DNA of 64,000 nt from an uncultured bacterium (GTDB lineage: Bacteria > JAJVIF01 > JAPKYR01). Each line of letters begins with the position of its first letter. Position 1 is the stretch's first letter. A program made the position numbers and the translations under genes. The stretch spans positions 36,560 to 100,559 of the forward strand of contig CBDURU010000003.1 of the NCBI GenBank assembly GCA_965369865.1, given 5' to 3'. Positions 32,167-49,537 of the stretch are shown in pieces. The notes below the pieces were generated by a model. The model was not told the DNA's origin and did not search any database. It saw only the letters and a program-made list of their open reading frames with translations.

Positions 32167-32199
32167 ATGTAATTAAATAAACAGGAGTGAGAATAATAG

Positions 32200-32895
32200 T
32201 TGGATGAATTAACAGTACAAAGTGTCGAAACGGTCGGTTACCTGTCGATGTTTAACGGGGACATCGTCGCACTTATCGGGACATCGTTCAACCTGTCCCT
32301 GTGGTCGACATCGATCGCCGCACTGATCGGCTTCCCGCTTGGGGTCTTAATCGGACTGTCCGAATTCAAAGGAAGAAGAACTGTTGATATCATTCTGAAT
32401 ACTCTTCTTTTCCTGCCGACTGTTGTGGTCGGGCACCTGGTTTACATGGCACTTACCAGGGAAGGATTTTTAGGGGATTTCCAACTACTTTTCACCCGTC
32501 CCGCAATTATTATAGGGCAGGTAATCCTTGCCACCCCAATAATCCTGACCATGGTTTCCAATACAGTACGGCTGGCGGACCGGCGGATCATTCCGACAGC
32601 ATTATCGATGGGGGCCAGTCGAATCAGGGCATATCTGCTTCTACTTGGTGAGGTGCGGGCTCTGGTGGTTCTCTCGCTGCTTGCGGCTTTCGCACGTGTT
32701 ATCTCGGAAGTCGGCGTTTCGATGATGCTGGGCGGGAATATTTTTGGAAAAACCCGGACGATTACCACGGGAATTGCCCTGCTTACCAGCCAGGGTGAAT
32801 TTTCCCAGGCAACGGTCCTCGGGCTTGTACTTCTGGTGATAGTTTTCGGAATCAATATTGTGGTTTACCAGGCTACACACAGGGTGTCTGCATGA
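32200..32895 (+). CDS. tupB: ABC transporter permease (TupB-like)
   Basis: 231 aa. About 5 TM segments and a binding-protein-dependent permease signature region. Overlaps the next gene by 4 nt. Confidence 0.7.
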   Translation: MDELTVQSVETVGYLSMFNGDIVALIGTSFNLSLWSTSIAALIGFPLGVLIGLSEFKGRRTVDIILNTLLFLPTVVVGHLVYMALTREGFLGDFQLLFTRPAIIIGQVILATPIILTMVSNTVRLADRRIIPTALSMGASRIRAYLLLLGEVRALVVLSLLAAFARVISEVGVSMMLGGNIFGKTRTITTGIALLTSQGEFSQATVLGLVLLVIVFGINIVVYQATHRVSA

Positions 32896-33935: not shown

Positions 33936-35172
33936 AACCAGTGTACAAGTGAGTAAGGACTTGATTTCAATCAGCGAAGCGGTAGGGATGGTTCTTGATT
34001 CTGTAAAACCCTTGCCCTCAATGAAGGTGATGCTGCAGGGATCGAAGAACTACAGGCTATCACAACCGGTGTATGCGGATATGGACGCACCCTCGTTCGA
34101 CAGGGCCATGATGGATGGTTACGCGCTCAAGGCATCAACATCGGGAGAGGGAGTAGAGATTGAAATTGTCGGAGAAATCGCGGCGGGTAAACCCCGGTCC
34201 GAATCAGTCCCCGGTGGGAAAGCTGTCAAAATTATGACCGGCGCCCCGATGCCTGAGGGCGCCGATGCGGTAATCGAGGTCGAACTGACAGAAGTCGTCG
34301 GGGGTAACAAGGTGCGCCTGAATGCTGGTGTTAAACCCGGAAAAAATATTGCATTTAAGGGCGAGGAAATGAAGAGCGGCCAGGAGATTTTAAAAACCGG
34401 AACTTTTATCGACGCTCCGGTAGCCGCGGTTCTTGCGATGGCCGGGAAATCTATGGTCGATGTTTACAGCCTGCCGAGAATAGGAATCCTGGTAACCGGA
34501 ACGGAACTTATCGATCCCGGCAACCCGCTGAAGCCCGGGCAGATAAGGGAAACCAACACTTTCAGCCTTACGGCACAGTCCCTGATATGGGGAGGAATCC
34601 CGATCCGCCTTGGAAAAGCGGGCGACGATCCCGAAAGCCTGAAAGCAGGTATCCACCGTGGATTTGAATACGAAATCTTCACTATTACAGGTGGTGTCTC
34701 GATGGGTGATTACGATCTTGTCCCCGACATACTTCGTGAAATGGGAGTCGAGGTCCTGTTCCATAAAGTAGCCCAGAAACCGGGAAAGCCGATCCTGTAC
34801 GGGAAAAAAGGATCGACTCATATTTTCGGCCTTCCGGGAAATCCTGTCGCGGTTTTCATTGGATTTGAATTGTATGTCGGGCCGCTGATTCGGCAACTTG
34901 CGGGCGAGGGAAATTTCCAAACTAAATGGCATAAGGGTGTTTCGACCGCAGAATTCAAGGTAAATGGAGACCGGACAATATTCAAACCCGCGATAGTTGA
35001 ACCGGTGGATGGGTTATGGAAGGTCCAACCGGTCCCCAGTCACGGGTCGGCCGACATTTACAGCATCGTCGGCACTAACGCGTTCGCGAAATTCAAGGAA
35101 GGTAAATATTCCGTTCCTGAAGGGACGGAAGTCGAGTTCTTTTTCCACAGAGGCAAACCGTATGGAGCTTAG
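33922..35172 (+). CDS. moeA: Molybdopterin molybdenum/tungsten-transferase MoeA
   Basis: MoeA N-terminal and MoCF-binding domains (…GGVSMGDYDLVPD…GLPGNPVAVF…). The ORF opens at 33877 inside tupC. Met codons at 33922 and 33928 overlapping the tupC stop are the likely start. Confidence 0.85.
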   Translation: MSMNKTSVQVSKDLISISEAVGMVLDSVKPLPSMKVMLQGSKNYRLSQPVYADMDAPSFDRAMMDGYALKASTSGEGVEIEIVGEIAAGKPRSESVPGGKAVKIMTGAPMPEGADAVIEVELTEVVGGNKVRLNAGVKPGKNIAFKGEEMKSGQEILKTGTFIDAPVAAVLAMAGKSMVDVYSLPRIGILVTGTELIDPGNPLKPGQIRETNTFSLTAQSLIWGGIPIRLGKAGDDPESLKAGIHRGFEYEIFTITGGVSMGDYDLVPDILREMGVEVLFHKVAQKPGKPILYGKKGSTHIFGLPGNPVAVFIGFELYVGPLIRQLAGEGNFQTKWHKGVSTAEFKVNGDRTIFKPAIVEPVDGLWKVQPVPSHGSADIYSIVGTNAFAKFKEGKYSVPEGTEVEFFFHRGKPYGA

Positions 35173-36133
35173 AGACAAGCTGGGAAGAAAGATTAATTAC
35201 CTTCGCCTGTCGGTTACCGACCGCTGCAACCAGCGGTGTATTTACTGTATGCCGGAGGAGGGCATTGAGTTTACGGCGTACGATAAGGTACTCAGGCTTG
35301 AGGAACTCGCCGGGCTGGCCGCACGGTTCATAAGCCTTTTTGAGATCGATAAAATCCGGCTGACGGGTGGAGAGCCGCTGGTTCGCAAGAATGTGGAAGT
35401 CCTGGTTGAGATTCTCTCCGCGAATCCGGCACTTAAAGATTTAGCCCTGACGACAAACGGGAGCCGTCTTGCAGCGAAAGCAAAAGCCCTTTTGTCGGCA
35501 GGATTGCGAAGGATAAATGTCTCGCTGGATTCACTCAATGAGGATCGTTACCGGAAAGTTACCGGTGGAGGGAATCTCAGCGATGTTCTTGAAGGGCTTG
35601 AAGTCGCAAAGGACGCCGGGCTGACACCCATCAAAATAAATACTGTCCTGCTTGGGGATTTCGAAGAGGAATTTGAGCTTATCGAGTGGGCAAACCGCAA
35701 CGGGCACATCCTGCGATTCATTGAGCTGATGCCGCATTCGTCGGAAAATTCCGGGAGGTTGGGACAGGGGGGGGCAACCGAAGCGGAAATCCTTGCCCGG
35801 CTTGAAACAAAGGTTGGGGGAATTGAAAAAATAGAAAGCCATGAAACCAGGCCCGGCAATCATTCAAGCAAGTACATGGTTTCTGAACGAGACTGGGTTT
35901 TCGAGGTGATCCCGAGCGTATCCGCCCCGTTCTGCGATAAGTGCAACCGGATCAGGTTGGACTGCCAGGGGATTTTACGTCCCTGCCTTTACAGCTCCTC
36001 GACAATCCAATTACGGGACTACCTTCATCTGCCGGATGAGGATTTCATAAAGGTCGTTGAAAAATTTGTCGGTCGAAAAACCGGACGTGCATTCAAACAT
36101 ATCGGGAGCGACATGTCGTCGATTGGAGGATGA
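35162..36133 (+). CDS. moaA: GTP 3',8-cyclase MoaA (radical SAM)
   Basis: MELRDKLGRKINYLRLSVTDRCNQRCIYCMPEEG… carries the CxxxCxxC radical-SAM motif. The C-terminal second cluster is CDKCNRIRLDCQG. The start overlaps the moeA stop by 11 nt. Confidence 0.9.
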   Translation: MELRDKLGRKINYLRLSVTDRCNQRCIYCMPEEGIEFTAYDKVLRLEELAGLAARFISLFEIDKIRLTGGEPLVRKNVEVLVEILSANPALKDLALTTNGSRLAAKAKALLSAGLRRINVSLDSLNEDRYRKVTGGGNLSDVLEGLEVAKDAGLTPIKINTVLLGDFEEEFELIEWANRNGHILRFIELMPHSSENSGRLGQGGATEAEILARLETKVGGIEKIESHETRPGNHSSKYMVSERDWVFEVIPSVSAPFCDKCNRIRLDCQGILRPCLYSSSTIQLRDYLHLPDEDFIKVVEKFVGRKTGRAFKHIGSDMSSIGG

Positions 36134-36134
36134 A

Positions 36135-36611
36135 ATGGAACTGAGTCATCTAAATAAAAAGGGACACGCGCACATGGTCGATGTTTCCGAAAAAGACATC
36201 ACCAGACGTATCGCCATTGCCACTGGGTTTATTCATATGCAACCCGCAGTCATTGAAGCGGTTACATCGGGAAATATTCCAAAGGGTGATATTCTGGCCG
36301 CGGCGCGGATCGCAGGAATCCAGGCCGCAAAAAAGACAAGCGACCTGATCCCGCTCTGCCATCCCCTTCCGATCGACCAGGTGTTGGTTGATTTTTCAAT
36401 CGAAAAAAATGGGATTGCCGTAACCGCGAAAGTGACCTCAACTGGACGAACCGGTGTCGAGATGGAAGCGTTGACCGCGGTGTCAATCGCTTCGTTAACA
36501 ATCTACGACATGTGCAAGGCAGTCGATAAAGGAATAAAAATCAGCGATATCGGGTTGATGGAAAAATCCGGAGGACGATCGGGCCATTACATAAGGAGTG
36601 AAAAATCATGA
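36135..36611 (+). CDS. moaC: Cyclic pyranopterin monophosphate synthase MoaC
   Basis: MELSHLNKKGHAHMVDVSEKDITRRIAIATG… and …LIPLCHPLPI… are typical MoaC. The ORF opens at a TTG at 36057. The ATG at 36135 follows directly on the moaA stop. Confidence 0.9.
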   Translation: MELSHLNKKGHAHMVDVSEKDITRRIAIATGFIHMQPAVIEAVTSGNIPKGDILAAARIAGIQAAKKTSDLIPLCHPLPIDQVLVDFSIEKNGIAVTAKVTSTGRTGVEMEALTAVSIASLTIYDMCKAVDKGIKISDIGLMEKSGGRSGHYIRSEKS

Positions 36612-37039
36612 AAGCTGAAATTATCGCTACGTCAATCAGCGAAAATAAGGGAACATCGAAAACAAACGTTGAAACGATTACGCTGGTCGTGGAACTTGGA
36701 GTAAAGGACGACGCCCATGCCGGGCCGGGACTTCGACAAGTATCGCTTATCGGAATGGACACGATCAGAAAAATAAACGAGAAGGGTATAGATGTCGAAC
36801 CCGGCGGATTCGGTGAGAACATTACAACCGAGGGGGTTGTACTTTACGAACTCCCGGTCGGCACGAAGTTTATTATTGGCGATGTTGAAATGGAAGTTAC
36901 ACAGATCGGGAAAGAATGCCATGAAGCATGCGCGATCCGTAAAAAGGTGGGTGACTGCCCGATGCCCCGGGAGGGTATTTTCGCAAGAGTGATAAAAGGC
37001 GGTGATGTGAGTGCCGGAAGCACAATTGAAATCAGTTAA
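36608..37039 (+). CDS. MOSC-domain protein (MoCo sulfurase C-terminal-like beta-barrel)
   Basis: 143 aa. Similar to YiiM/MOSC family members (…RQVSLIGMDTIRKINEKGIDVEPGGFGENITTEG…). ATGA overlap with the moaC stop. Confidence 0.65.
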   Translation: MKAEIIATSISENKGTSKTNVETITLVVELGVKDDAHAGPGLRQVSLIGMDTIRKINEKGIDVEPGGFGENITTEGVVLYELPVGTKFIIGDVEMEVTQIGKECHEACAIRKKVGDCPMPREGIFARVIKGGDVSAGSTIEIS

Positions 37040-37562
37040 AGCCAGGATTGTTACGATGTCCGATTCCCGCTCGACCGGGGAACGAATCGATACGGTCGGT
37101 CCTATGCTGACTGAGAAACTACAATTTCTGGGTGCGGATATCGATCCACCCGTTGTAATTCCTGACGAAAAAGACGTTCTGATAAAAACTCTGTGTCAAT
37201 TATCCGACGATGATTGCATTGACCTGATTATCACGACCGGAGGGACAGGCCTGTCGCCGAGAGACATCACTCCGGACGCGACACGTGAAGTAATCGACAT
37301 GGATATTCCAGGTTTTGGCGAATTGATACGGTACGAGGGCGGCAAACAAACCTTGCGCGCGTACCTGTCGCGTGGAATCGCCGGGATCAGGGGCAGGAGC
37401 CTGATAATCAATCTGCCCGGAAGCGAACGCGGCGCGATGCATTCGCTCGAGGTCCTGATGCCGTTGATACCCCATGCATTAGAAACAATCAGAGGAGAAG
37501 CTCACGAGTGCGGCAGTAAGATCGGCGAAAAAGATCAAGTGCATACTCACGATCGCTCATGA
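37011..37562 (+). CDS. mogA: Molybdenum cofactor biosynthesis protein MogA/MoaB family (MPT adenylyltransferase)
   Basis: …ARIVTMSDSRSTGERIDTVGPML…DLIITTGGTGLSPRDITPDAT… is the MogA/MoaB signature. The start may be the internal Met at 37056. Confidence 0.8.
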   Translation: MPEAQLKSVKARIVTMSDSRSTGERIDTVGPMLTEKLQFLGADIDPPVVIPDEKDVLIKTLCQLSDDDCIDLIITTGGTGLSPRDITPDATREVIDMDIPGFGELIRYEGGKQTLRAYLSRGIAGIRGRSLIINLPGSERGAMHSLEVLMPLIPHALETIRGEAHECGSKIGEKDQVHTHDRS

Positions 37563-38134
37563 CAGAAACAGCAATCATACTAACAGGCGGCAAAAGCCTG
37601 CGCTACGGAAGTCCCAAGGGGCTTGAAAAGGTCGGTGACCGGACTTTGATAGGGAAACTGGCGCTGGAACTCCGTACGGCGGGGATCGATGACATTTATT
37701 TGTCCACCGATGATTATGAACGGTATGAATTCCTTGGGCTTCCGATTATTCCCGACCGCTTCAAGGGCGGCGGACCCCTCGCGGGAATTCACAGCGCTCT
37801 CCTTGAGACAGGAACCGAAAAACTGCTCGTGCTGCCCTGCGATTTACCGGGGCTGAAGTCGGTACAAATCAGGACCCTTCTGGATGCGGCGAATGAAAAA
37901 CCGGCACCGGTTGTGTTTGTAAAAACACCATCGCAGGAGCACCCGCTGTGTTCGGTAGTACGAAGCGATCTCCTTGAAAAATTGACTGAGACATTGTCGG
38001 ATGGAAAAAACGCGGCACTCAGATTTTTCAAGGACGTCGATCACAAAACTGTTTTTTTTGAAGATGAGACACCGTTTATGAACGTAAACACCCCGGAAGA
38101 TTTAAAGGTCTGGGAGGCGGATAATGTCGTCTGA
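37559..38134 (+). CDS. mobA: Molybdenum cofactor guanylyltransferase MobA
   Basis: 191 aa. N-terminal AIILTGGKSLRYG…PKGL and …LPCDLPGL… motifs of MobA-like NTP-transferases. ATGA overlap with mogA. Confidence 0.75.
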   Translation: MTETAIILTGGKSLRYGSPKGLEKVGDRTLIGKLALELRTAGIDDIYLSTDDYERYEFLGLPIIPDRFKGGGPLAGIHSALLETGTEKLLVLPCDLPGLKSVQIRTLLDAANEKPAPVVFVKTPSQEHPLCSVVRSDLLEKLTETLSDGKNAALRFFKDVDHKTVFFEDETPFMNVNTPEDLKVWEADNVV

Positions 38135-38918
38135 CGATTTATATGATGAGCTCGATACAGTTCGTTACAGCCCTAAACACGGGTTCCGGAAAATTGAGGA
38201 CCCGGTCGTTCGTGAAACTTCCCTCCGGGTTTTTGTGAATGACCTTGAAGTGGTGGTCATTCAATCCCTGAAACATGAAATCAGGGAACTGGCACTTGGA
38301 TTTTTATACACCGAGTGCGTGATAAATGATGTCAGTGCCGTGAAGGAAATCGAAGTGAACGACGGGCTGCATGCTGTGAAGGTTATAACATCCGAGAAAA
38401 TAACACAGGGAAATATCCCGTCAGTCAGGTCGATCACATCGGGATGCGGCGCCGAGGTTTCCTTTATTAATCCAATGCAGTCAAATCTTTTCAAGATATT
38501 GCAGTCGAAGGAAACCCTTAGAGTGGAGGTTATTTCAAAATTGATGCGAAAATTGATGAAAGCATCGAAGCTTTTTACTGAGACCGGAGCCGTACACATC
38601 GCGGCATTCAGCGATGGCGAAAAGCTGATTCATGTTTCAGAAGACATCGGCAGGCATAACTGCATCGACAAAATCATCGGCTGGAAACTCCTTAACAATA
38701 AATCCAGTTCCCATCTACGGTTGATTTTAGCCAGTGGAAGGCTGTCGAGTGATATCGTCGCGAAATCCATCCGGGGTGGTGTACCGATAGTAGTATCCCA
38801 TTCCGCTCCCACACGTGGGGCGATTCAGCTTGCCAAAGATTTTGGAATTACATTGATAGGTTTTGCCAGGGGAAGCAGATTTAATATTTATTCTCATGAG
38901 GAGCGAATAGTCCAATGA
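38124..38918 (+). CDS. fdhD: Formate dehydrogenase accessory sulfurtransferase FdhD
   Basis: 264 aa. FdhD signature …EDIGRHNCIDKIIGW… near the C-terminus. Overlaps mobA by 11 nt. Confidence 0.85.
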   Translation: MSSDDLYDELDTVRYSPKHGFRKIEDPVVRETSLRVFVNDLEVVVIQSLKHEIRELALGFLYTECVINDVSAVKEIEVNDGLHAVKVITSEKITQGNIPSVRSITSGCGAEVSFINPMQSNLFKILQSKETLRVEVISKLMRKLMKASKLFTETGAVHIAAFSDGEKLIHVSEDIGRHNCIDKIIGWKLLNNKSSSHLRLILASGRLSSDIVAKSIRGGVPIVVSHSAPTRGAIQLAKDFGITLIGFARGSRFNIYSHEERIVQ

Positions 38919-39226
38919 CAGATTCGAGTAAAGTTTTCTTGAACAATCCCACAGATGAGCAAAGGAACTCACTTGTAAAATTTTTCGATGACGCGGGGAT
39001 TTCGGTGGAATGGCTGGGTACATCCGATGGCGCCGATGTTACCGTTGACTGGCCGGATGACAAGGTTGTCTGTGAACGGGACAGTCTTCATGCCGGTGGA
39101 CGGATATCATGCCCAAACGCTTTTGTAATTGCCCGACGCCTGAAAATCAAACGGGGTTTGATTGGTAACTTGATGAATCACCTTGATATCAGAATTTATG
39201 GCTGCCAGCTTGGGTGTTTTAAATGA
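38915..39226 (+). CDS. Small Cys-containing hypothetical protein inside the Moco operon
   Basis: 103 aa. ATGA overlaps on both sides argue it is translated. Cys pairs (CERDSLHAGGRISC, GCQLGC). No family recognised. Confidence 0.4.
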   Translation: MTDSSKVFLNNPTDEQRNSLVKFFDDAGISVEWLGTSDGADVTVDWPDDKVVCERDSLHAGGRISCPNAFVIARRLKIKRGLIGNLMNHLDIRIYGCQLGCFK

Positions 39227-40020
39227 AAACCTGGCTAATAGCCGGAGCACAGTCGGGGGTCGGCAAGACTACCCTTGTCAGGAATTTAATGGAAATCCTG
39301 CCGAATTCCGAGTTCCTGAAAATCGGCCACAGCCCCAGGAGAAAAACAGGTCCTGCCAATTATTTCACATCTGCCGATAAGGCCCTTGATTTTATCAGCA
39401 GGCAGGAAGTCAGTTTCGATCATTGCGTTGTCGAATCGAATCGTCTTGTGGGCAAACTCGATGCCGATGTGGTGATTTTTCTCGATCGGGAGGAGGGCGA
39501 CCGCCGTCACGATGCAGACAGGCTCAGGAAATGCGCCGATATCATCCTCGGGTATCAAGGGAACAGGAATAAATGGGGGAAGGTTATTTCCGCACTTGAA
39601 CTTTCGCCGGATGTTTCGAATAGTGTTATAAAAGTATTTAAAGCACAGCACAAGTACCTCACGAGCAGCCGGATATCGTTAAGGACCAAAATCTGGTTGA
39701 GAAGGGATGGTAAAGTCGTTTTCGGTGAAGGTCTGGCAAGGCTGCTTTACGGGATCGATCACCTTGGGAGCCTCTCGAGGGCTGCGAAGGAGGAGGGAAC
39801 TTCGTATCGTCATGCATGGGGGGATATAAAAAGGGCGGAAGAACGGTTGGGATTTCCACTCCTGGAACGCTCGGTAGGCGGGGTAGCCGGGGGCGGTTCG
39901 CGATTAACGGAGAAAGGGCATCAACTCCTCAAGGGCTACGAAGCAATTAAACTGAGGAGCATTCGCGAAAGCGACCGCTGGTTCCGGGAACTATTTGGAA
40001 ATATTATCGATGGTTTATAA
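39223..40020 (+). CDS. Fusion protein: MobB-like P-loop NTPase domain plus a ModE-type N-terminal winged-HTH domain
   Basis: N-terminus IAGAQSGVGKTTLVRNL…LKIGHSP resembles MobB (GxxGxGKTTL…IKHxHH). Residues ~150-255 (LYGIDHLGSLSRAAKEEGTSYRHAWGDIKRAEERLGFPLLERSVGGVAGGGSRLTEKGHQLL) align with the ModE N-terminal DNA-binding domain (…SGSISQGAKDAGISYKSAWDAIN…ERATGGKGGGGAVLT…). Confidence 0.6.
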   Translation: MKTWLIAGAQSGVGKTTLVRNLMEILPNSEFLKIGHSPRRKTGPANYFTSADKALDFISRQEVSFDHCVVESNRLVGKLDADVVIFLDREEGDRRHDADRLRKCADIILGYQGNRNKWGKVISALELSPDVSNSVIKVFKAQHKYLTSSRISLRTKIWLRRDGKVVFGEGLARLLYGIDHLGSLSRAAKEEGTSYRHAWGDIKRAEERLGFPLLERSVGGVAGGGSRLTEKGHQLLKGYEAIKLRSIRESDRWFRELFGNIIDGL

Positions 40021-40091
40021 CCCAAAATCAGTCAATTCGTTGTATATTAAGTAAACACCAGTTTACCGCCGTTCTGGGGTTGAGTCGACCG

Positions 40092-41600
40092 ATGGAGCAG
40101 GTACAACTAAATCAGCCGGATCATGTTCTGTTAACGGGTGCCACGGGTTACATAGGGGGACGCCTGGCACCCCGCCTGCTTGATTCAGGATATTTTGTCA
40201 GGTGCCTCGTGCGAAATCCTCGCAAGCTGTCGGCTCGTCCCTGGGCGGAACATCCGCGTGTGGATAAAATCGGTGGCGATGCAGGGGATTTCAAGCGCCT
40301 GGTTGAGTCTATGAGAGGATGCAGTGCGGCATATTACCTGATCCATTCGATGGTTTCAGCCGGTCCGGAATACCGGAAGCACGATCGTCATCTGGCAGGT
40401 ATTTTTGCTAATGCTGCTCGGGAAGCCGGGGTTGGCAGAATTATTTATCTTGGTGGGCTTGGAGAAACCGGGGAGGGATTAAGTGAACACCTGTCATCAA
40501 GACGCGAGGTGGAGGAGGCCCTGGCATCCGGCCCGGTTCCCTTGACCGTGCTTCGCGCCGCGATGATAATCGGTTCCGGCTCGGCATCATACGAGATATT
40601 ACGCTACCTGGTTGAACGGCTGCCGGTAATTACCCCACCCCTGGCAATTAATACTCTCCAGCAACCAATTTCAGTTCGAAATGTTCTTAATTACCTGATT
40701 GATTGTCTGAGAACTCCGGAAACAATTGGGAAGATACTGGATATCGGTGGCCCGGACGTAATGTCATACCGGGAGATGATGCAGGTTATGGCGGAAGCTC
40801 ACGGTCTGGGCAATCGCCTTATCGTACCTGTTCCTGCTATTTCCCCCCGTCTTGCGGCATGGTGGATTCAGTTAATCACCCCAATCAGCCACAGAATTGC
40901 CCTTCCATTGAGCGAAGGAGTCAGGAACCAGGTTGTCTGCCGGAATGATGACGCTGTAAAATTAATGCCCCAGGAGCTTCTTAATATCCGGGAGTCGATA
41001 GCGGCGGCCGACGTTAGGATCAGCTCGAATTACATTGAGACCGCATGGTCGGACGCGGGAGTTATGCCCGGCGACCCTGATTGGTCCGGTGGGACAAATT
41101 ATAAAAATGTTTATCAAATCGATATCGATGCCACACCGGAGGAAGTTTACAAAGAGATCTCCTGTATTGGCGGGGAACACGGTTATTACGGGGCTGACTG
41201 GCTGTGGGCTTTACGTGGAATCATGGACCAGGTTATCGGAGGACCCGGTCTGAGACGCGGACGAAAGGATTCAAAGCATGTCGCATATGGCGATGCGATT
41301 GATTTCTGGCGTGTGATCGAAGTTGAGCCGGCAAAACGTCTTGTGTTACGGGCGGAAATGGCGCTTCCAGGCGATGCCGATCTGGAATTTGATATAAATC
41401 AGGGAGAGAGTAACCCCACACCAACCAGGCTGGTTTCAACCGCCAGGTTCAAACCAAGAGGACTCGCCGGGTTGATGTACTGGTTTTCCGTTCTCCCACT
41501 GCACCGTTTTGTGTTTCTGAAGATGTTGCATGGGATAAAACACGCGGTTGAATCCAAAGCTGTAAGAGTGATAACAAGACCCGAATCCGGAGACTGGTAA
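40092..41600 (+). CDS. NAD(P)H-binding NmrA/SDR-like protein with a C-terminal DUF2867-like domain
   Basis: Rossmann motif LLTGATGYIGGRL near the N-terminus. A long C-terminal domain of the DUF2867 type usually found fused to such SDRs. The ORF opens at a TTG at 40080; ATG at 40092. Confidence 0.7.
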   Translation: MEQVQLNQPDHVLLTGATGYIGGRLAPRLLDSGYFVRCLVRNPRKLSARPWAEHPRVDKIGGDAGDFKRLVESMRGCSAAYYLIHSMVSAGPEYRKHDRHLAGIFANAAREAGVGRIIYLGGLGETGEGLSEHLSSRREVEEALASGPVPLTVLRAAMIIGSGSASYEILRYLVERLPVITPPLAINTLQQPISVRNVLNYLIDCLRTPETIGKILDIGGPDVMSYREMMQVMAEAHGLGNRLIVPVPAISPRLAAWWIQLITPISHRIALPLSEGVRNQVVCRNDDAVKLMPQELLNIRESIAAADVRISSNYIETAWSDAGVMPGDPDWSGGTNYKNVYQIDIDATPEEVYKEISCIGGEHGYYGADWLWALRGIMDQVIGGPGLRRGRKDSKHVAYGDAIDFWRVIEVEPAKRLVLRAEMALPGDADLEFDINQGESNPTPTRLVSTARFKPRGLAGLMYWFSVLPLHRFVFLKMLHGIKHAVESKAVRVITRPESGDW

Positions 41601-41808
41601 ACCGGCGATACCGGCCTTTGACGATTATCCATTCTAGAAAGCCGTTAGTTCGATATATAAAACTAAATCAGCAGATTGAACACATGGAAATAATAGTGAT
41701 TTTCCTTGACATCTCGGGTCTGGAAAGGCATTTATATAGGCCAATGCCGGAATAGAAACTGCGAACCTGTGGGTTGATGAAATTACCTTCATTCCCAAGG
41801 TGGTAAAA

Positions 41809-43917
41809 ATGCTGGAATCCCTTCTTTATCCACAAAGTGTAGCTGTTATCGGTGCGTCGAGGACCCCGGGAAAGATAGGTTATGAAGTTCTTCGTAATCT
41901 GATAGAAGGTGGATTCAAGGGTGAGATAGTCCCAATAAACCCAAATGCGGATTCACTCCAGAATCTTAAGTGTTATCCAGATCTCAAAACGTATGGAAAG
42001 AAAATTGACCATAGTTTTATTGCTGTTCCGGCTGGAGAGGTTAAAGAGGCGGTCCAAAGCTCGATCAAGGCTGGTGTAAATGCGGTTATCATAATTGGTG
42101 CCGGGTTTAAGGAGGTCAGCATCGAAGGCGCGGAGTTGGAGAAAGAGATTGCGCAAATATGCAAAACCGCCGGGGTACGCATGCTCGGTCCGAACTCAAT
42201 GGGGCTGATAAACACCGAGCATAATTTCAACGCTTCATATTCCTCGCACATGCCCTTTAGCGGTGGAATATCAATTCTTTCTCAATCAGGCACCCTTTGT
42301 ACCGCGATAATCGACTGGGCCGCACGCCGACATCTCGGTATCGCCAAGTTCGTAAGTATGGGTAATAAAGCGGATCTGAACGAGGTCCATTTCCTTAAAG
42401 CTTTCACATCCGATGACCAGACAAAAGTAATCGTTGCATACCTTGAGACGATTACCAATGGCGATGAATTCGTCAAAGCCGCCGAAGCCGCCGCATCGGT
42501 CAAACCCGTTATAATTTTAAAAGTGGGGACTACGGAAGCCGGGGAAAAAGTGGCGACCAGACATACTGGCGAGTTGTCCGGGACCGACATCGGCTATGGT
42601 GCCGCCCTGAAACGATCGGGTGTTATCAGGGCAAAAACTTTTGAGACACTCCTCGATTACGCCGTTGCCCTGGGATTGCAGCCGTTACCCGATGGCGACC
42701 GGATCGCGGTAATAACCAATGCCGGCGGTCCCGGAATCATGGCGGTAGACGCAATAGTGGAATCTGGCATGCAGGTAGCTAAACTCTCCACTGAAACAAT
42801 GAAAGCCTTGAGTGAGAAACTTCCGGAGGCCGTTGGCCTTTCAAATCCAATCGATCTGAACGCTTTTGCCGATCCCGATCAATACTCAATAGCAGTGAGA
42901 GCAACCCTTGAAGATGATCTGGTCGATGCCCTGATAGTTGTGCTGGCCCCCCAGGGGTTGTCGCAGCCCGCTGAAACCGCTAAGGCTATCGCTGGTTGTA
43001 TTGATGGAAATAAACCGGTTCTAGCAGCTTTCATGGGCGGAAAGGATGTTCTACCGGGACGAGAGGAGCTGGCAGCCAGCAACATCCCCTGGTTCAACGT
43101 TCCAGAGAAAGCGGTTGAAGCGATGAAGGCCATGGTTGATTATGCGGCCTGGAAACGTCAGCCGCCACGGGTTGTTACACGATTCCCGGTACATCGCCGA
43201 CGGGTTGAACGGGTTATCTCGCGACATTTGAAAAGAGGTCATCGGGAAATCAGCGAAGTCCAGGCCAAGGAAATTCTCCGCGCGTACGACTTCAATGTAC
43301 CCGAAGGATTTATAACGGGCAACCCGGAAGAGGCGGTTGAGGTTGCGGAGAAGATCGGTTATCCGGTGGCGATGAAAATCGCATCCTACGATATCATCCA
43401 TAAATCCCAGGTCGGGGGAGTGAAATTAAACATCGCCACCGCCGAGGGTGTTCGGGATACTTTCGAGCTGATGATTTCTCGTGTTAACAGGCGCGCGGCA
43501 AACGCAAGAGTTGAAGGCGTATATGTAGAACAAATGTGTCCCCCGGGACTCGGAGTGATCATCGGGATGAGAACCGATCCGGAATTCGGACCGATGCTCA
43601 TGTTCGGGTTAGGGGGTATTTTCGTGGAAGTACTGGAGGACATTACTTTCCACCTCGCGCCAATAACCGAGGATGAAGCGATTCAGATGCTTTTGGGGTC
43701 CCGATCGTATTCGATGCTCATCGAACGCCGGGGACAGGGAAGCATCGATCTCCACGCGGTAGCTAACGGCCTGCAGCATATCAGCCAGCTCGTTACCGAT
43801 TTCCCGCAAATAGCCGAGCTGGATATTAATCCATTCCTGGTCGGTCAGGTAGGTTCAATGCCGATCGTGGTGGATGCCAGAATCATTCTGTCAGGAGCGG
43901 ACAAGAAAAATGAATGA
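41809..43917 (+). CDS. ADP-forming acetyl-CoA synthetase (NDP-forming acyl-CoA synthetase, fused alpha/beta domains)
   Basis: CoA-binding N-terminus (SVAVIGASRTPGKIGYEV…), a succinyl-CoA-synthetase-like ligase domain, and a C-terminal ATP-grasp domain (…GYPVAMKIASYDIIHKSQVGGVKLNI…). ATG at 41809 is preceded by AAGGTGG. The ORF track opens at 41800. Confidence 0.85.
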   Translation: MLESLLYPQSVAVIGASRTPGKIGYEVLRNLIEGGFKGEIVPINPNADSLQNLKCYPDLKTYGKKIDHSFIAVPAGEVKEAVQSSIKAGVNAVIIIGAGFKEVSIEGAELEKEIAQICKTAGVRMLGPNSMGLINTEHNFNASYSSHMPFSGGISILSQSGTLCTAIIDWAARRHLGIAKFVSMGNKADLNEVHFLKAFTSDDQTKVIVAYLETITNGDEFVKAAEAAASVKPVIILKVGTTEAGEKVATRHTGELSGTDIGYGAALKRSGVIRAKTFETLLDYAVALGLQPLPDGDRIAVITNAGGPGIMAVDAIVESGMQVAKLSTETMKALSEKLPEAVGLSNPIDLNAFADPDQYSIAVRATLEDDLVDALIVVLAPQGLSQPAETAKAIAGCIDGNKPVLAAFMGGKDVLPGREELAASNIPWFNVPEKAVEAMKAMVDYAAWKRQPPRVVTRFPVHRRRVERVISRHLKRGHREISEVQAKEILRAYDFNVPEGFITGNPEEAVEVAEKIGYPVAMKIASYDIIHKSQVGGVKLNIATAEGVRDTFELMISRVNRRAANARVEGVYVEQMCPPGLGVIIGMRTDPEFGPMLMFGLGGIFVEVLEDITFHLAPITEDEAIQMLLGSRSYSMLIERRGQGSIDLHAVANGLQHISQLVTDFPQIAELDINPFLVGQVGSMPIVVDARIILSGADKKNE

Positions 43918-45787
43918 GCGGTCTAAAGGCATCTACGATCCCGACTGGCAAAATCGATACGACAGTTTGGTCGCGACCGCAGCGGAAGCGGTTTCGCGCA
44001 TCCAGCCGGGCAACAGGGTATTTATCGGAACCGGTTGCGCGCAGCCTCTTGCATTGGTGAGCGCACTGACCGACCGGGCCGGGGAACTGGCCGATACCAA
44101 GATCGTTCATCTGCTGACCAAAGGCGATGCTCCTTATGCCGACGAGGCACTCACTGAAAATTTCCGGATCAACAGCTTCTTTATTTCTGAAAGTACCAGG
44201 GGTTTGATCAGGGAAGGTCTGGGCGATTATACACCGATCTCCCTCTCTGACATTCCTCGGCTTTTCAGCTCAGGGCAGCTCCCGCTCGATGCCGCTCTGA
44301 TTCAGGTCACTCCGCCGGATGATCGCGGGATGTGCAGCCTGGGGATATCAGTGGATATTGTCAGAAGCGCGGCCGAAAACGCGTCTCTTGTGATTGCCCA
44401 GGTCAATCCGAACATGCCCAGAACCCTCGGCGACAGTTTTATCCATGTACATGATATAGACTACCTTGTGCCTGCCGACCTTCCGCTACTTGAAATACAA
44501 CCCCCCGAAACAACGGAGGTTACAAGGCAGATCGGAGAGAACGTCGCGGCTCTTATTGAGAATGGGTCCACTATCGAACTTGGGATCGGAAGCGTATCCC
44601 AGTCGGTGCTGGGATTTCTGAAAGGCAAGCAGGACCTTGGGGTCCACACCGAAACTTTCACCGACAGCATTATCGACCTTATTGAGTCGGGTGCGATAAC
44701 CGGGACCCATAAATCAACGGACCGAGGGAAAGTTGTCGCCAGCTTCTGCATGGGTACGCAAAGGCTTTACGATTATATAAATAACAATCCGGTATTTTCG
44801 TTTCGACCGACCGAATATGTTAACGATCCATTAGTAATCGGCAAGCAGAATAAACAGGTCGCGGTCAATTCAGCTCTCGAAGTCGACCTCACCGGACAGA
44901 TTTGTGCCGATTCACTCGGTGATGAATTTTATTCCGGTATCGGTGGCCAGGTGGATTTTAACCGCGGTGCCGCGAGGTCTCCCGGCGGCAAGGCGATAAT
45001 CGCGCTTCCATCGACCGCGAAAAACGGGACCATCTCACGCATTGTCACCAGGCTCAGTCCGGGTGCCGGCATAGTGACCCCGCGTGGGGATGTGCATTAC
45101 GTAGTCACAGAATACGGTGTCGCATACCTCCACGGTAAAAGCATCCAGGAACGGGCACTGGGGTTAATCAGTATCGCCCACCCGGATTACAGGGTAAACC
45201 TCCTGAGCGAAGCGATCGAGGCGAAACTTCTGCACGAGGGAATGTCCGACATTGAAGGACGGTTTAATATCGGTTCACCGGAATTACGGGGATCGATGCT
45301 ACAGGACGATGGAATCCTGATCAACTTCAGGCCGATTCATCCCACCGATCCGGAACGCATTAAGGATATGTTCTATACCCTTTCTGAAGAGAGCGTTTAT
45401 TTACGATTCATGCAGAAATTGAAAAGGATTCAAGAAAAGCAAATTCATGATTTCGTGTTTATCGATCATCGTAACGAGGTGACGATAGTTGGCACTGTTC
45501 CCGAAGCGCACGGCGAAGATATAATCGCGATGGGCGGTTACTATCTCGATCCCAAAATAAACAGGGCCGAGGTAGCGTTTCTTGTCAGGGACGGGTGGCA
45601 GGGGAAGAAAATCGCCACTTACCTTCTCAAGCATCTGACAAATATCGCAAGGCGAAGCGGAATAGCGGGGTTTGTAGCTGAAACCCTCCCCCAGAACAAG
45701 GCGATGCAATCCGTTTTCAACAACAGCGGCCTGAAGGTCAAAAGCAAACTTGAAGATGGAATGTATGTCTACGAGATGGATTTTTAG
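43913..45787 (+). CDS. Acetyl-CoA hydrolase/transferase-family domain fused to a C-terminal GNAT acetyltransferase domain
   Basis: N-terminal ~430 aa match the acetyl-CoA hydrolase/4-hydroxybutyrate CoA-transferase family (…NRVFIGTGCAQP…, …GIGSVSQSVLGFL…, …EVDLTGQICADSLGDEFYSGIGGQVDF…). The C-terminal ~170 aa is GNAT-like (…VAFLVRDGWQGKKIATYLLKHLTNIARRSGIAGFVAETLPQNKAM…). Start overlaps the upstream stop by 4 nt (ATGA-type coupling). Confidence 0.75.
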   Translation, partial: NERSKGIYDPDWQNRYDSLVATAAEAVSRIQPGNRVFIGTGCAQPLALVSALTDRAGELADTKIVHLLTKGDAPYADEALTENFRINSFFISESTRGLIREGLGDYTPISLSDIPRLFSSGQLPLDAALIQVTPPDDRGMCSLGISVDIVRSAAENASLVIAQVNPNMPRTLGDSFIHVHDIDYLVPADLPLLEIQPPETTEVTRQIGENVAALIENGSTIELGIGSVSQSVLGFLKGKQDLGVHTETFTDSIIDLIESGAITGTHKSTDRGKVVASFCMGTQRLYDYINNNPVFSFRPTEYVNDPLVIGKQNKQVAVNSALEVDLTGQICADSLGDEFYSGIGGQVDFNRGAARSPGGKAIIALPSTAKNGTISRIVTRLSPGAGIVTPRGDVHYVVTEYGVAYLHGKSIQERALGLISIAHPDYRVNLLSEAIEAKLLHEGMSDIEGRFNIGSPELRGSMLQDDGILINFRPIHPTDPERIKDMFYTLSEESVYLRFMQKLKRIQEKQIHDFVFIDHRNEVTIVGTVPEAHGEDIIAMGGYYLDPKINRAEVAFLVRDGWQGKKIATYLLKHLTNIARRSGIAGFVAETLPQNKAMQSVFNNSGLKVKSKLEDGMYVYEMDF

Positions 45788-45810
45788 AGCACTGCAGCAG
45801 TTATTAAATA

Positions 45811-45985
45811 GGCCTAAGCCCTCCCTGACGGGGCTGTTGAAAAAGTACTAAATCCCGTAGCGCAGGACGCCGGCCTGCAGTATCGCGGACGGCCCGTCCG
45901 CATAGGGAGCGGTATCGAAAGTTTTGATCCCTTGTGATTTTTCAGTTTAACTACTTTTTCAACAGCCCCGTCAGGGAGGGCTTAG
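45811..45985. repeat. Perfect 33-bp inverted-repeat pair (ctaagccctccctgacggggctgttgaaaaagt / actttttcaacagccccgtcagggagggcttag) bracketing ~106 bp, followed by a T-run. MITE-like or structured RNA/terminator element.
   Basis: Seen directly. The arms are exact reverse complements. An internal hairpin gcggacggcccgtccgc lies in the spacer. TGCTTTTTATT follows the right arm. It sits between convergent genes. Confidence 0.7.
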
Positions 45986-46023
45986 TGCTTTTTATTCAGA
46001 TTACTTCTGATACCAGCCAGAGA

Positions 46024-46791
46024 TTATTCACCCAATTTCTTCGATGGGCCTTGAAGGAAGGGTCTTATGAGATCGATCGGGAGCGGGAAGATTGTGGTTG
46101 AATTTTTCTCTGCCGCGACCTCGACCAAAGTCTGAAGGTATCTCAACTGCAATGTAACCTCGTTCTGGCTCATGACATCCGCGGCTTCCTTCAATTTCTG
46201 CGACGCCTGGAATTCACCTTCGGCTGCAATGATCTTCGCCCGACGTTCACGCTCGGCCTCAGCCTGTTTCGCCATCGCACGTTTCATTGTCTCCGGAAGC
46301 TCAACGTCCTTGATTTCGACCATAGAGACCTTGATTCCCCACGGATCGGTCTGGGTATCGATGATCGACTGGAGGGTCTGGTTGATTTTTTCACGGCTGG
46401 ACAGAAGTTCATCCAGCTCGTGCTCACCGAGAACCGATCGCAGGGTTGTCTGCGCGATCTGGCTCGTCGCCAGGTTGAAATTCCGTACGTTGTTGATAGC
46501 TTTGTTCGGGTCGAGAACCTGGTAGTAGATAACCGCATTAACCCTGATAGTTACGTTATCACGGGTGATGACCTCCTGTGATGGGACATCGAGTGTAATG
46601 ATGCGGATATCGACTTTCCGGACAGTCTGAAACACCGGGACAACAAAAACGATCCCGGGTCCACGTACACCCTGAAACCTTCCCAGTGTATACAGGACGA
46701 TCCGCTCGAACTGGTAGGCGATCTTAATGAACCAGCTGATGACGACAAGGATTGCGACAATTAGGATTATTATTGGGATGATTCCTTCCAT
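46024..46791 (-). CDS. SPFH/Band-7 (stomatin/prohibitin-like) membrane protein
   Basis: 255 aa. N-terminal TM segment, a Band-7 core (…RDNVTIRVNAVIYYQVLDPNKAINNV…), and a C-terminal coiled-coil rich in AEAERERRAKI. Confidence 0.85.
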   Translation of the reverse strand: MEGIIPIIILIVAILVVISWFIKIAYQFERIVLYTLGRFQGVRGPGIVFVVPVFQTVRKVDIRIITLDVPSQEVITRDNVTIRVNAVIYYQVLDPNKAINNVRNFNLATSQIAQTTLRSVLGEHELDELLSSREKINQTLQSIIDTQTDPWGIKVSMVEIKDVELPETMKRAMAKQAEAERERRAKIIAAEGEFQASQKLKEAADVMSQNEVTLQLRYLQTLVEVAAEKNSTTIFPLPIDLIRPFLQGPSKKLGE

Positions 46792-47590: not shown

Positions 47591-49537
47591 ATGTTTTCTC
47601 GAGTCCTCATTGTATTTCTTATCATTATTGGTCTGCTTTTCTCTTTACTGGCGTGCGGACGAGGAGCCGACGTAAATACCCCTACCCCCATAACCGATTC
47701 AAAATTAACCGCATCAAGCACCAACGAGCGAATGCTCTGGGGAATGTGGGATATTACAATCGACGGTATTACAGGAGATGTAGATATCGTTCAGTCCCGC
47801 ACTGCAACATTCACCGCAAACATAACACGACTTATCCAACCCCCTGCATATCCGATGAGCCTTCTGCAAGTCAAAATGAATATTCCTGAATCGGATATCC
47901 TGGCAGGAAAACTGGTATTCGATCTTGGCCTGAGCCATCCACTCCTGAATGACCTCAGGTTCAGGGCATTCGACTGCCGGGGAATAATTATGGCTAGGGG
48001 AGGAAATGTGGGAATTTACGACCCAACTATCTTCTACCCGACCTCATCCCAAACGCACATGATCAACCCCGACGGGCACTCAAGATGGTGGAACCAGATA
48101 GAATTTACCACATACGAAACAATCTTTGGATACACTGAAGGTGTGCTTGCCCACAAGAGTTTCACTTCAACAAGCACGCTGAATCCTTACAAGCTGCATA
48201 CACCATCACTCGAACCCGCTCAACCTGTCTACCAGATGGACCTGGACGAGAGGGCGACATTCCCGGTCTCAACTCTGCCTCTTGCCCGAACGTACAAGAT
48301 GCAGTTTGATATATCCTCGTTTCCGGTATTCGGTTTCAAGTATTGTTTCGATATAAGCTGGGCGCTGCCGGATGAGGCTTATTGGCCAAATTTCCCGGTA
48401 GAAGCGTACCCCCCGGAGGCGAACTGCCAGGAAGCGTATTACTTACGAATCGAAGAATTCGAGGAGATCCCGTACTACGTCGATGAATGGGTCGGCGGTG
48501 GTGATCTCCAGTTCCTCCTGACGATAGGTGACTGGCAGGCTACCGGTGGAAATGTACTCAATGAAATTTCCCATGTCTGGATCGAATCACCAACCCTGTT
48601 CGGTATTCCGATCGATGTCCGTGACACGATGGAATTTGTCGGAAGTACTCATGACACAATGGCAACATACAGGATATTCATTGAGGACATGCTCCCGTCC
48701 GCACTGGAAGGCCAGCAGATTCTCATAACAGTGGAGAGCGCGGATCCGAATACATACGCCCCGCAAATCGGTAGCCCGGGTCCGTGGATATATCCCGCCT
48801 CACCACTAGCCGCATACTATTTCGCCGATGTGCCCATAACAAACCTCACCCCGGATGGTGATTACGCTTATGTCTATTTCGTTCCTGACTGGTGCGCGAC
48901 AATGCGGGTCCAGTGCACTAAAGACCAACAGGGCAACCAGGGCGGATCGGGCAACCAGCCACTTATAGCTAATATGATGAAACAGAACATCGAAGGGTAT
49001 TACAACGACTACACCCATGTACAGGTATGGGAAGGGAAGTTCGGTGGAACCGCGGGACAGAGTACGGCTGCGCTCCAGCAAACATGCACCAGTCTCGGTT
49101 ATTCGTTCGCGCGTACTTATAATCCCTATTTCGATCCAGCGAACAGCCGTGTTGTATTTGTTATCGGACTGTCAATACCCCTTGGCCCACCAAATCCTCC
49201 ATTCACGATTGAGGAAGCCAACGATATGCAGGAATTCATCGAGAACGGTGGAATCCTGATCTTCATGTGCGAGGCAAGTACGTATTTCTGGGTACAGGGA
49301 TTCGATGAACTCTTCGAATGGCTTGGCATGTTAATGCAATACGGCGGTGGAGCCACACCCGAATTCGGAGACGGTTACACGGAAAACATCACATGGCACT
49401 GGATGACGGACGGGATTGAGTTGTACCACTATTATTCAGTCGGCCAGTGGCTGACAGAGGACCCGCACGTTCTTACTCTGGTGGAAACGGAGTTTGACGA
49501 GAAACTGATATTAATCTATCCTCTTCCGTTGGAATAA
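47591..49537 (+). CDS. Fifth paralog of the surface-lipoprotein family: conserved N-terminal module only, with an unrelated C-terminal region
   Basis: 648 aa. Signal peptide plus Cys (…SLLACGRG). Shares the N-terminal module with the four array genes (…MWDITIDG…, …FDCRGIIMARGGNVGIYDP…NPDGHSRWWNQIEFTTYETIFGYTEGVL…LNPYKLH…). No PPC or propeller domain. GGAGG RBS. Confidence 0.6.
   Translation: MFSRVLIVFLIIIGLLFSLLACGRGADVNTPTPITDSKLTASSTNERMLWGMWDITIDGITGDVDIVQSRTATFTANITRLIQPPAYPMSLLQVKMNIPESDILAGKLVFDLGLSHPLLNDLRFRAFDCRGIIMARGGNVGIYDPTIFYPTSSQTHMINPDGHSRWWNQIEFTTYETIFGYTEGVLAHKSFTSTSTLNPYKLHTPSLEPAQPVYQMDLDERATFPVSTLPLARTYKMQFDISSFPVFGFKYCFDISWALPDEAYWPNFPVEAYPPEANCQEAYYLRIEEFEEIPYYVDEWVGGGDLQFLLTIGDWQATGGNVLNEISHVWIESPTLFGIPIDVRDTMEFVGSTHDTMATYRIFIEDMLPSALEGQQILITVESADPNTYAPQIGSPGPWIYPASPLAAYYFADVPITNLTPDGDYAYVYFVPDWCATMRVQCTKDQQGNQGGSGNQPLIANMMKQNIEGYYNDYTHVQVWEGKFGGTAGQSTAALQQTCTSLGYSFARTYNPYFDPANSRVVFVIGLSIPLGPPNPPFTIEEANDMQEFIENGGILIFMCEASTYFWVQGFDELFEWLGMLMQYGGGATPEFGDGYTENITWHWMTDGIELYHYYSVGQWLTEDPHVLTLVETEFDEKLILIYPLPLE

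Follow-up and report, generated by a model that had tools for sequence, protein, structure and literature searches.

Bacterial lysine acetyltransferases (KATs) are classed by the domain that is fused to their GNAT domain, which is an NDP-forming acyl-CoA synthetase (ACS)-like domain in types I and II and an ACT, cNMP-binding, or NADP+-binding domain in type III (PMC6456759, PMC12184503). Pat-type GNATs regulate Acs, an AMP-forming acetyl-CoA synthetase, in most bacteria studied (PMC12184503). Here we analyzed a two-gene operon within a 64,000-nucleotide (nt) stretch of DNA from an uncultured bacterium (assembly GCA_965369865.1, contig CBDURU010000003.1, positions 36,560 to 100,559 of the forward strand), hereafter called the window and numbered from its first letter. 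The operon encodes an ADP-forming acyl-CoA synthetase (ACD) and, overlapping it, a class-I CoA-transferase fused to a Pat-type GNAT domain. Based on sequence and on analogy with described systems, we favor with moderate confidence a Pat-class lysine acetyltransferase in which the CoA-transferase has replaced the ACS-like regulatory domain and which, co-expressed with ACD, would switch off AMP-forming Acs. A CoA-transferase is not among the KAT partner domains in the 2019 (PMC6456759) and 2025 (PMC12184503) classifications, and full-text searches of the open-access literature returned no description of a CoA-transferase::GNAT pairing. What appears to be new is the CoA-transferase as a KAT partner domain; the sequences themselves are already public under generic names.

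The Pat/PatZ/YfiQ proteins of Salmonella and E. coli (class I-alpha, type I) share with the fusion a C-terminal Pat-type GNAT (E809 and R754 correspond to E554 and R499 of the fusion), a sizeable N-terminal domain for the binding of CoA thioesters, and a tie to acetate/acetyl-CoA metabolism. However, the N-terminal domain of Pat is NDP-forming-ACS-like, whereas that of the fusion is a class-I CoA-transferase. The ACS-like domain of Salmonella Pat (SePat) has also lost its critical catalytic histidine and cannot make acetyl-CoA (PMC3195501), whereas the CoA-transferase of the fusion keeps its catalytic residues and the window encodes an apparently active ACS homologue as a separate upstream gene. 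Since no ACS-like domain is fused to its GNAT, the fusion falls outside class I-alpha. The closest solved GNAT is that of S. lividans PatA (SlPatA; type II; 4nxy, 4u5y), which matches over the whole domain (5e-24), but PatA has its GNAT at the N-terminus, ahead of the ACS-like domain, and carries no CoA-transferase. Type III/class I-beta KATs, including the cAMP-binding Pat proteins of M. tuberculosis (MtPat) and M. smegmatis, Micromonospora AAPatA (ACT), and Myxococcus MxKat (NADP+-binding), resemble the fusion in having an N-terminal metabolite-binding domain and a C-terminal Pat-type GNAT. Their regulatory domains are small non-enzymatic sensors (PMC6456759, PMC12184503), while that of the fusion is a 430-residue enzyme. 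In the published scheme the fusion would lie nearest to class I-beta/type III, with a new partner domain that seems enzymatically intact.

Organization of the operon

The operon consists of two open reading frames (ORFs) on the forward strand, which span 41800..43917 and 43874..45787 in their longest forms (Table 1). The longest ACD frame begins at GTG 41800, and ATG 41809 has a ribosome-binding site, AAGGTGG, just before it. The latter is the most likely start and gives a protein of 702 amino acids (aa), compared to the 705 aa given in a first-pass annotation made from the letters and ORFs of the window. For the fusion, the AGGAG at 43893-43897 and homologues of 624–627 aa that begin at the equivalent position make ATG 43910 the most likely start, giving 625 aa; the starts at 43874 or 43913 in the first-pass annotation were corrected on this basis. 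From this ATG the fusion gene overlaps the ACD gene, up to its stop codon (TGA, 43915-43917), by 8 nt (ATGAATGA), within the junction sequence ...CAGGAGCGGACAAGAAAAATGAATGAGCG..., and translation of the two genes is presumably coupled. Both ORFs, their domains, and the overlap between a separate ADP-forming ACS and a downstream CoA-transferase::GNAT gene are therefore as first described. Fusion residues are numbered here from ATG 43910, except for the Pfam positions of the domain scan, which count from the longest ORF.

On reading the sequence, a TTGACA box was seen at approximately 41706 in the AT-rich region upstream of the operon. A promoter and terminator consensus scan of 41400-46200 gave nothing above shuffled background, and Rfam gave no match in the operon region. 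An artefact of gene fusion or assembly is ruled out by at least 120 independent full-length homologues of the same architecture and by 80 genomic loci.

Table 1. Positions of the operon, its domains, and associated elements in the window.
Feature	Position	Strand	Basis
Presumed promoter and 5' untranslated region, AT-rich intergenic	41601..41808	+	Sequence; promoter role inferred
ADP-forming acyl-CoA synthetase gene (ACD, fused alpha-beta, ~702 aa)	41809..43917	+	Pfam, PDB matches
Gene junction: AGGAG 43893-43897, ATG 43910, TGA 43915-43917	43893..43917	+	Sequence
CoA-transferase::GNAT fusion gene, 625 aa	43910..45787	+	Pfam, structure matches, homologues
Class-I CoA-transferase domain, residues ~12-445	43943..45244	+	Alignment, Foldseek
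Interdomain linker, residues ~446-469	45245..45316	+	AlphaFold2 pLDDT
Pat-type GNAT domain, residues ~470-625	45317..45784	+	Alignments to SlPatA, PatZ, MtPat
Hairpin element, 190 nt, in the interval that separates the operon from the convergent SPFH gene	45805..45994	.	Fold, inverted repeats

The CoA-transferase domain

Using Pfam, we found AcetylCoA_hydro (PF02550; residues 35-200, 4.2e-28) and AcetylCoA_hyd_C (PF13336; residues 294-447, 2.5e-65) in the N-terminal part of the fusion. Structures of 4-hydroxybutyrate CoA-transferases match this part from end to end (9vag, 2e-138; 2oas, 2.5e-119; 3eh7, 9e-117; 3gk7, 5e-114). The AlphaFold2 (AF2) model of the fusion has a mean predicted local distance difference test score (pLDDT) of 82.7, with values above 90 across most of the CoA-transferase domain, and in Foldseek comparisons to 3gk7 and 2oas it reached target-normalised TM-scores of 0.92-0.96 at a root-mean-square deviation of 1.5-1.9 Å. 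By homology, the enzyme class is clear: a class-I CoA-transferase of the 4-hydroxybutyrate-CoA-transferase family. The acetyl-CoA hydrolase/transferase-family domain of the first-pass annotation was thus recovered both in Pfam and in the fold. The same annotation had considered a canonical Pat with a degenerate ACS-like N-terminal domain, which is rejected, as the N-terminal 445 residues are a CoA-transferase by Pfam, PDB, and Foldseek and contain no ACS-like domains. The linker that follows, of approximately 25 residues, appears flexible in the AF2 model, with pLDDT below 50 at residues 447-456.

The likeness to AbfT and the butyryl-CoA:acetate CoA-transferases includes the fold, the end-to-end match, the GXGGQXDF motif, and the catalytic Glu, but those enzymes lack a GNAT extension. 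Glu248, which lies in an HTE motif (codon 44651-44653), aligns with E238 of AbfT (3gk7), on which the glutamyl-CoA thioester forms in this family. An intact GIGGQVDF motif lies at residues 343-350. Across the family Glu248 is kept in 192 of 193 sequences, and GGQxDF is nearly invariant. Because the catalytic residues are strictly conserved there, CoA-transferase activity is likely retained in the window's clade. The protein scored 293.1 bits with the butyryl-CoA:acetate CoA-transferase equivalog TIGR03948, under the cut-off of 674.8.

The Pat-type GNAT domain

The C-terminal part of the fusion is above the Pfam cut-offs for Acetyltransf_1 (residues 529-615; 8.7e-8, 32.9 bits, cut-off 20.7) and Acetyltransf_3 (residues 485-621; 27.9 bits, cut-off 25.4), in agreement with the GNAT that the first-pass annotation had placed in the last ~170 residues. 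In addition to SlPatA, full-domain matches were found to E. coli PatZ (9isq/9it0, 4e-10), M. tuberculosis Pat (4ava, 2e-9), and M. smegmatis Pat. The NCBIfam model "acetyltransferase Pat" matched residues 466-607 with 63.8 bits, under its own cut-off of 460 bits. These alignments place the GNAT specifically within the Pat type.

In the PatZ structure, E809 and R754 are required for activity, G822-G824 form the P-loop that holds the acetyl-CoA diphosphate, and V746-T763 is a mobile gating motif, of which R754 is the Arg (PMC12184503). Glu554 of the fusion, within AEVAF (codon 45569-45571), aligns with E809 of PatZ and SePat, E235 of MtPat, and E123 of SlPatA, and Arg499 aligns with PatZ R754. 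A check of the GNAT catalytic residues had been proposed with the first-pass annotation, and both are present at their PatZ positions. Glu554 is invariant (193 of 193 family members), as is R499 in an alignment of 75 sequences. The low-confidence stretch of the AF2 model at residues 492-519 is the counterpart of the PatZ gating motif. The P-loop, Q564-A569 (45599-45616), reads QGKKIA in the window and its nearest relatives, compared to a family consensus of QNRGIG. The consensus fits the acetyl-CoA motif Q/R-x-x-G-x-G/A; in the window, Ala569 is allowed but Lys567 replaces the Gly. Because of this departure from the consensus, we are cautious about the full activity of the window's copy.

The upstream ADP-forming acyl-CoA synthetase

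The upstream protein contains CoA_binding_2, Succ_CoA_lig, Ligase_CoA_2, and ATP-grasp_5, the full Pfam set of a fused alpha-beta ACD. Its best PDB match is an ADP-forming 4-hydroxybutyrate-CoA ligase (8wzu, 7.5e-143) over the full length; it also matches archaeal ACD1 subunits and, at 1e-92, the PatZ regulatory domain. The alpha catalytic histidine is His255 (codon 42562-42564), in a motif that is SHTGS in the family and RHTGE in the window, and the beta catalytic histidine is His534 (codon 43399-43401), within IxHKSDVGGV. Both are invariant in all 59 ACD homologues from related loci, and with these histidines intact ACD is predicted to be a catalytically competent, active-type enzyme. The first-pass annotation had asked whether the pair is a rearranged Pat-like module; the ACS in it, at any rate, is no Pat-like pseudo-enzyme. 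Since ACD keeps both histidines while SePat lost its own, the pair is not a split Pat but an active ACD plus a separate acetyltransferase.

Against the NCBIfam equivalogs for acetate-, 4-hydroxybutyrate-, and 3-hydroxypropionate-CoA ligase, ACD fell below the cut-offs (501.7/567, 576.6/1300, 509/1200, and 451/1300 bits), and acetate is taken as its substrate by default. The best structure matches of both proteins of the operon carry "4-hydroxybutyrate" labels. This shared label was dropped as a clue to the substrate because all equivalog cut-offs were missed.

Distribution and gene neighborhoods

At least 120 full-length homologues came back from a protein search, with 63-96% identity and the same precomputed domain set; they are of 620-634 aa, plus one of 670 aa, and bear only the automatic labels "GNAT family N-acetyltransferase" or "acyl-CoA hydrolase/GNAT". 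According to the first-pass annotation, such a pairing is not known from characterized proteins. This agrees with the open-access literature, but the search of databases for the domain order shows that the pairing is not rare: its carriers form a large family with strong conservation. Among species-representative genomes, a scan gave 170 relatives, and neighborhoods were counted on the 80 loci kept, which come from more than 10 phyla. These include Planctomycetota (Pirellulales, Sedimentisphaerales, and Phycisphaerae), Verrucomicrobiota, Kiritimatiellales, Victivallaceae, an Acidobacteriota metagenome-assembled genome (MAG), Nitrospiraceae, Hydrogenedentes, Myxococcales, Trueperaceae, WOR-3, and Thor- and Hermodarchaeota. 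One locus from a Planctomycetota MAG, L001, is 97% identical and presumably stems from an organism closely related to that of the window. MAGs can carry a wrong taxonomic label. Loci L011 and L022 (66-67% identity) are both labelled "uncultured Bifidobacterium sp." yet carry a Verrucomicrobiota-type cluster of ACD, fusion, histone-deacetylase-family protein, and Acs, with a major facilitator superfamily (MFS) transporter as well in L022; mis-binning or a wrong label is likely.

Upstream sequence was long enough for assessment in 68 loci; in 57 of them, tblastn with the window ACS as the query found an ACD homologue directly upstream of the fusion (<300 nt) and on the same strand. Approximately 40 of 64 estimated gaps between the two genes are negative, meaning that the genes overlap. 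Three loci, from WOR-3 and an unclassified bacterium, have ACD directly downstream instead, and six archaeal loci have no ACD. The identities of ACD and GNAT to their window counterparts co-vary (Spearman rho 0.78, n=61 loci); as the loci share phylogenetic history, this value serves only as a description. Median identity is 62% for the CoA-transferase domain compared to 44% for the GNAT, making the former the most conserved part of the fusion.

Clustering of all neighboring ORFs revealed three further recurrent neighbors. A 378-aa AcuC-like Hist_deacetyl protein (3.8e-82) occurs in 48 of 80 loci and is directly downstream on the same strand in 35 of 75, with a median gap of 13 nt. AMP-forming Acs, with the domains ACAS_N, AMP-binding, and AMP-binding_C, is found in 33 of 80; its representative sequence ends in PKTRSGKIMRR, a motif that is acetylated by Pat enzymes at the PX4GK lysine. 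An MFS transporter is found in 28 of 80. In some Verrucomicrobiota, ACD, fusion, deacetylase, Acs, and MFS genes are consecutive on one strand. The window has the minimal two-gene form, which is typical of the group with 63-69% identity. Four loci from Thor-/Hermodarchaeota MAGs (L066, L071, L073, and L077) encode a full fusion of 49-52% identity with no ACD, and there the MFS and AMP-forming Acs genes lie immediately upstream on the opposite strand.

The related loci resemble the B. subtilis acsA/acuABC region in that the acetyltransferase is followed by an AcuC-type deacetylase, with Acs encoded close by, frequently on the opposite strand (PMC13121692). However, AcuA is a stand-alone GNAT, the related loci add an ADP-forming ACS, and no AcuB homologue was noticed among their recurrent neighbor clusters. 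The window does not contain the acsA/acuABC combination of writer, eraser, and target.

Divergent members and other GNAT partners

A search with the GNAT alone against 1.8 billion cluster representatives gave 8583 matches at E<=1e-3, with 2035 at E<=1e-10. Among the best 150 of the 8583 were 50 CoA-transferase-GNAT proteins (fragments included), 28 GNAT-ACS-like proteins with the type II Pat layout, one with the type I layout, and 60 short sequences. Pfam confirmed the CoA-transferase architecture for divergent members with no more than 33-44% identity in the GNAT. In 20 full-length divergent representatives, the GNAT motifs A-E/D-V-A and Q-x-x-G-x-G persist. The catalytic-Glu motif, on the other hand, is lost in several of these proteins, reading HTA in P0125, HTC in P0158, HLA in P0166, HTQ in P0183, HTD in P0238, and QTD in P0247, and the GGQ motif is degenerate or deleted in several divergent members. 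Because these proteins keep the GNAT motifs and lose the Glu or GGQ, the GNAT would be the functional constant of the family, and some lineages can apparently dispense with catalysis by the CoA-transferase. In such divergent members the CoA-transferase domain appears to be turning into a pseudo-enzyme, the same fate (loss of catalysis) as that of the Pat ACS-like domain. The gene for P0125 (L081, 6001-7836) lies 4 nt downstream of a 704-aa ACD with both histidines, while P0158 (L084) stands alone. Since P0125 lacks the Glu and still adjoins an intact ACD, the linkage to ACD seems to be independent of CoA-transferase chemistry.

Two proteins pair the same GNAT subtype with other partners. In P0234 (485 aa), the GNAT follows a universal stress protein (Usp) domain that was matched in two stretches. 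The other, P0140 (625 aa), is an ACS-like-GNAT protein in shortened form, with Succ_CoA_lig, Ligase_CoA_2, and part of an ATP-grasp domain.

Proposed function and alternatives

The operon probably helps to control whether the cell makes or consumes acetate, though we infer the target, the direction in which it is regulated, and the role as a sensor from the locus and its relatives. ACD would catalyze acetyl-CoA + ADP + Pi <-> acetate + ATP + CoA. The GNAT would acetylate AMP-forming Acs at its active-site lysine, and perhaps other acyl-CoA synthetases at theirs, and an AcuC-type deacetylase would reverse the acetylation of Acs, in an arrangement resembling acsA/acuABC and PatZ/CobB. We consider Acs the likely target and the AcuC-type deacetylase the likely eraser because of the neighborhoods of related loci and the known biology of Pat, PatZ, and AcuA. 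With the writer gene coupled to the ACD gene, the ATP-consuming Acs uptake route would be shut when ACD is expressed and acetyl-CoA is high, while the ATP-yielding, acetate-forming ACD route runs. Such coupling would avoid a futile cycle, since with both routes running, one phosphoanhydride bond would be lost in every turn. The CoA-transferase domain would bind or react with acyl-CoA and carboxylate, and may serve as sensor and scaffold in the manner of the acetyl-CoA-binding domain of PatZ. In the window's clade it probably still moves CoA between acetyl-CoA/acetate and other short-chain acids. The first-pass annotation had offered, as its alternative, an acetate/acetyl-CoA interconversion cassette with built-in regulation, which comes close to this explanation. 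Its other proposal was a unit that senses or uses acetyl-CoA to acetylate targets, for example the ACS itself or other enzymes. For the adjacent ACS as the target the related loci offer nothing specific, and they point to AMP-forming Acs; that the ACS is acetylated is conceivable from the adjacency of the genes.

Several observations weigh against Acs control by this fusion. The CoA-transferase residues are conserved almost perfectly in the window's clade (Glu248 in 192 of 193), which suggests a real enzymatic role beyond sensing. The linkage to ACD is stronger than that to Acs (57 of 68 compared to 33 of 80 loci), and the locus counts are not phylogenetically independent, with many loci coming from Pirellulales and Sedimentisphaerales. 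Homologues of the deacetylase, AMP-forming Acs, and MFS transporter were sought across the window and none were found, so the acetylation target is not encoded in the available sequence. Finally, Lys567 occupies the position of PatZ G822 and is carried by only 4 of 193 family sequences; this Gly-to-Lys change in the P-loop could weaken or alter acetyl-CoA binding.

The stronger linkage to ACD raises the possibility that a Pat is assembled in trans or that ACD is itself the target, with the fusion binding the co-translated ACD and either acetylating it, which would tune acetate and ATP formation, or using it as a sensor of acetyl-CoA/ATP. This corresponds to the rearranged Pat-like module of the first-pass annotation, and we regard it as a tentative and rather unlikely alternative. 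The adjacency to ACD, often with overlapping genes, is the most conserved feature of the loci, and it survives both where the CoA-transferase is catalytically dead and in WOR-3, where the gene order is reversed. The co-varying divergence of ACD and GNAT also fits, but it may merely reflect the co-inheritance of neighboring genes. A passage of PMC6456759 reports that autoacetylation of PatZ drives its oligomerisation, with the modified domain unstated in that passage; autoacetylation is to that extent documented for the Pat type. However, the Asgard loci keep the fusion without ACD but with Acs, no control of an ADP-forming ACS by acetylation appears in the literature searched, and the linkage to a deacetylase and Acs has a direct precedent in acuABC/acsA. 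It is likewise possible, though improbable in our estimation, that the CoA-transferase is a reaction-based sensor, in which a covalent glutamyl-CoA state reports the acyl-CoA/carboxylate ratio and gates the GNAT, and that together with ACD it forms a Pat-like holoenzyme in trans and a new type of KAT. If so, an enzyme would have been recruited as a regulatory domain, in forms that range from catalytically intact, as in the window, to a dead CoA-transferase, and the new KAT type would extend over several bacterial phyla, Planctomycetota and Verrucomicrobiota above all, as well as Asgard archaea.

The conservation of the CoA-transferase could instead reflect a primarily metabolic cassette, in which CoA is moved from butyryl-, propionyl-, succinyl-, or 4-hydroxybutyryl-CoA to acetate and ACD makes ATP, with the GNAT as an accessory, for example in self-regulation. 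Such a cycle would be analogous to the acetate:succinate CoA-transferase/succinyl-CoA synthetase (ASCT/SCS) cycle. Glu248 and GGQVDF are intact and almost invariant in the window's clade, the fold is nearly identical to AbfT and 2oas, the CoA-transferase is the part under the strongest conservation, and the best structure matches of both proteins are 4-hydroxybutyrate enzymes (8wzu; 9vag/3gk7). The equivalog cut-offs, however, are missed widely (293 compared to 675 bits and 577 compared to 1300 bits), several divergent fusions have lost the Glu or GGQ yet keep the GNAT, with one still adjoining ACD, and the invariant GNAT catalytic residues and the deacetylase and Acs neighbors are left unexplained, which makes this explanation doubtful. 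The presence of two intact active sites for CoA thioesters on one polypeptide could also reflect channelling, with the CoA-transferase making a non-acetyl acyl-CoA in situ and the GNAT passing the acyl group to a lysine or a small-molecule amine. This is very improbable, as the GNAT groups with Pat-type GNATs of known protein acetyltransferases, members with a dead CoA-transferase retain the GNAT, and the linker is flexible in the AF2 model.

Surroundings of the operon

Downstream of the operon, the hairpin element (Table 1) has 48-nt inverted-repeat arms with 90% complementarity around a 94-nt core, with a folding energy of -104.5 kcal/mol and a z-score of -9.9. In L001 (7890-8038) the left arm is conserved and the core is inverted, with 89% identity to the reverse complement of the core in the window. 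The core orientation is therefore an inversion polymorphism between the window and L001. The hairpin could be an invertible switch, or the inversion could result from recombination within a bidirectional terminator hairpin. It presumably belongs to the operon.

The flanks of the operon are unrelated to it: upstream are genes for molybdate transport and the molybdenum cofactor, and downstream, on the other strand, are SPFH/NfeD genes. The molybdate ABC-transporter/cofactor cluster (31294-40020) contains a periplasmic-binding-protein (PBP)-like gene, an ABC ATPase with TOBE, MoeA, MoaA, MoaC, MoCF_biosynth, a MobA-like protein, and FdhD, and at its end are a 265-aa protein with a weak N-terminal P-loop (CbiA-like) match and a LysR-type helix-turn-helix, and a 103-aa ORF with no family match. 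A 506-aa fusion of NmrA/NAD(P)-binding and DUF2867 domains (40080-41600) lies directly upstream of the operon. Downstream, a 648-aa protein with a hydrophobic N-terminus (47591-49537) has no Pfam match. Farther away, four tandem paralogous ORFs of 1135-1162 aa occupy 17033-30950 on the reverse strand. Two of these were scanned (17033-20440 and 20502-23945) and gave only weak LVIVD-repeat matches; the four are probably large secreted or surface beta-propeller proteins. Three ORFs of approximately 810-830 aa, at 5499-10440 (forward strand) and 13257-15680 (reverse strand), each match only the C-terminal end of the YfhO family of membrane proteins.

Significance

The CoA-transferase::GNAT architecture occurs widely in little-studied lineages that are mostly anaerobic, namely Planctomycetota, Verrucomicrobiota, Hydrogenedentes, WOR-3, and Thor-/Hermodarchaeota; many lineages of this kind presumably ferment to acetate. 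The label "GNAT family N-acetyltransferase" conceals half of the protein. If the model of Acs control by a CoA-transferase-bearing Pat-class acetyltransferase holds, the fusion would represent a new regulatory input to the acetate switch, with protein acetylation linking the ADP-forming and AMP-forming acetyl-CoA synthetases. The family would also provide a series of proteins in which an enzyme domain is becoming a regulatory pseudo-enzyme, which may inform how Pat arose.

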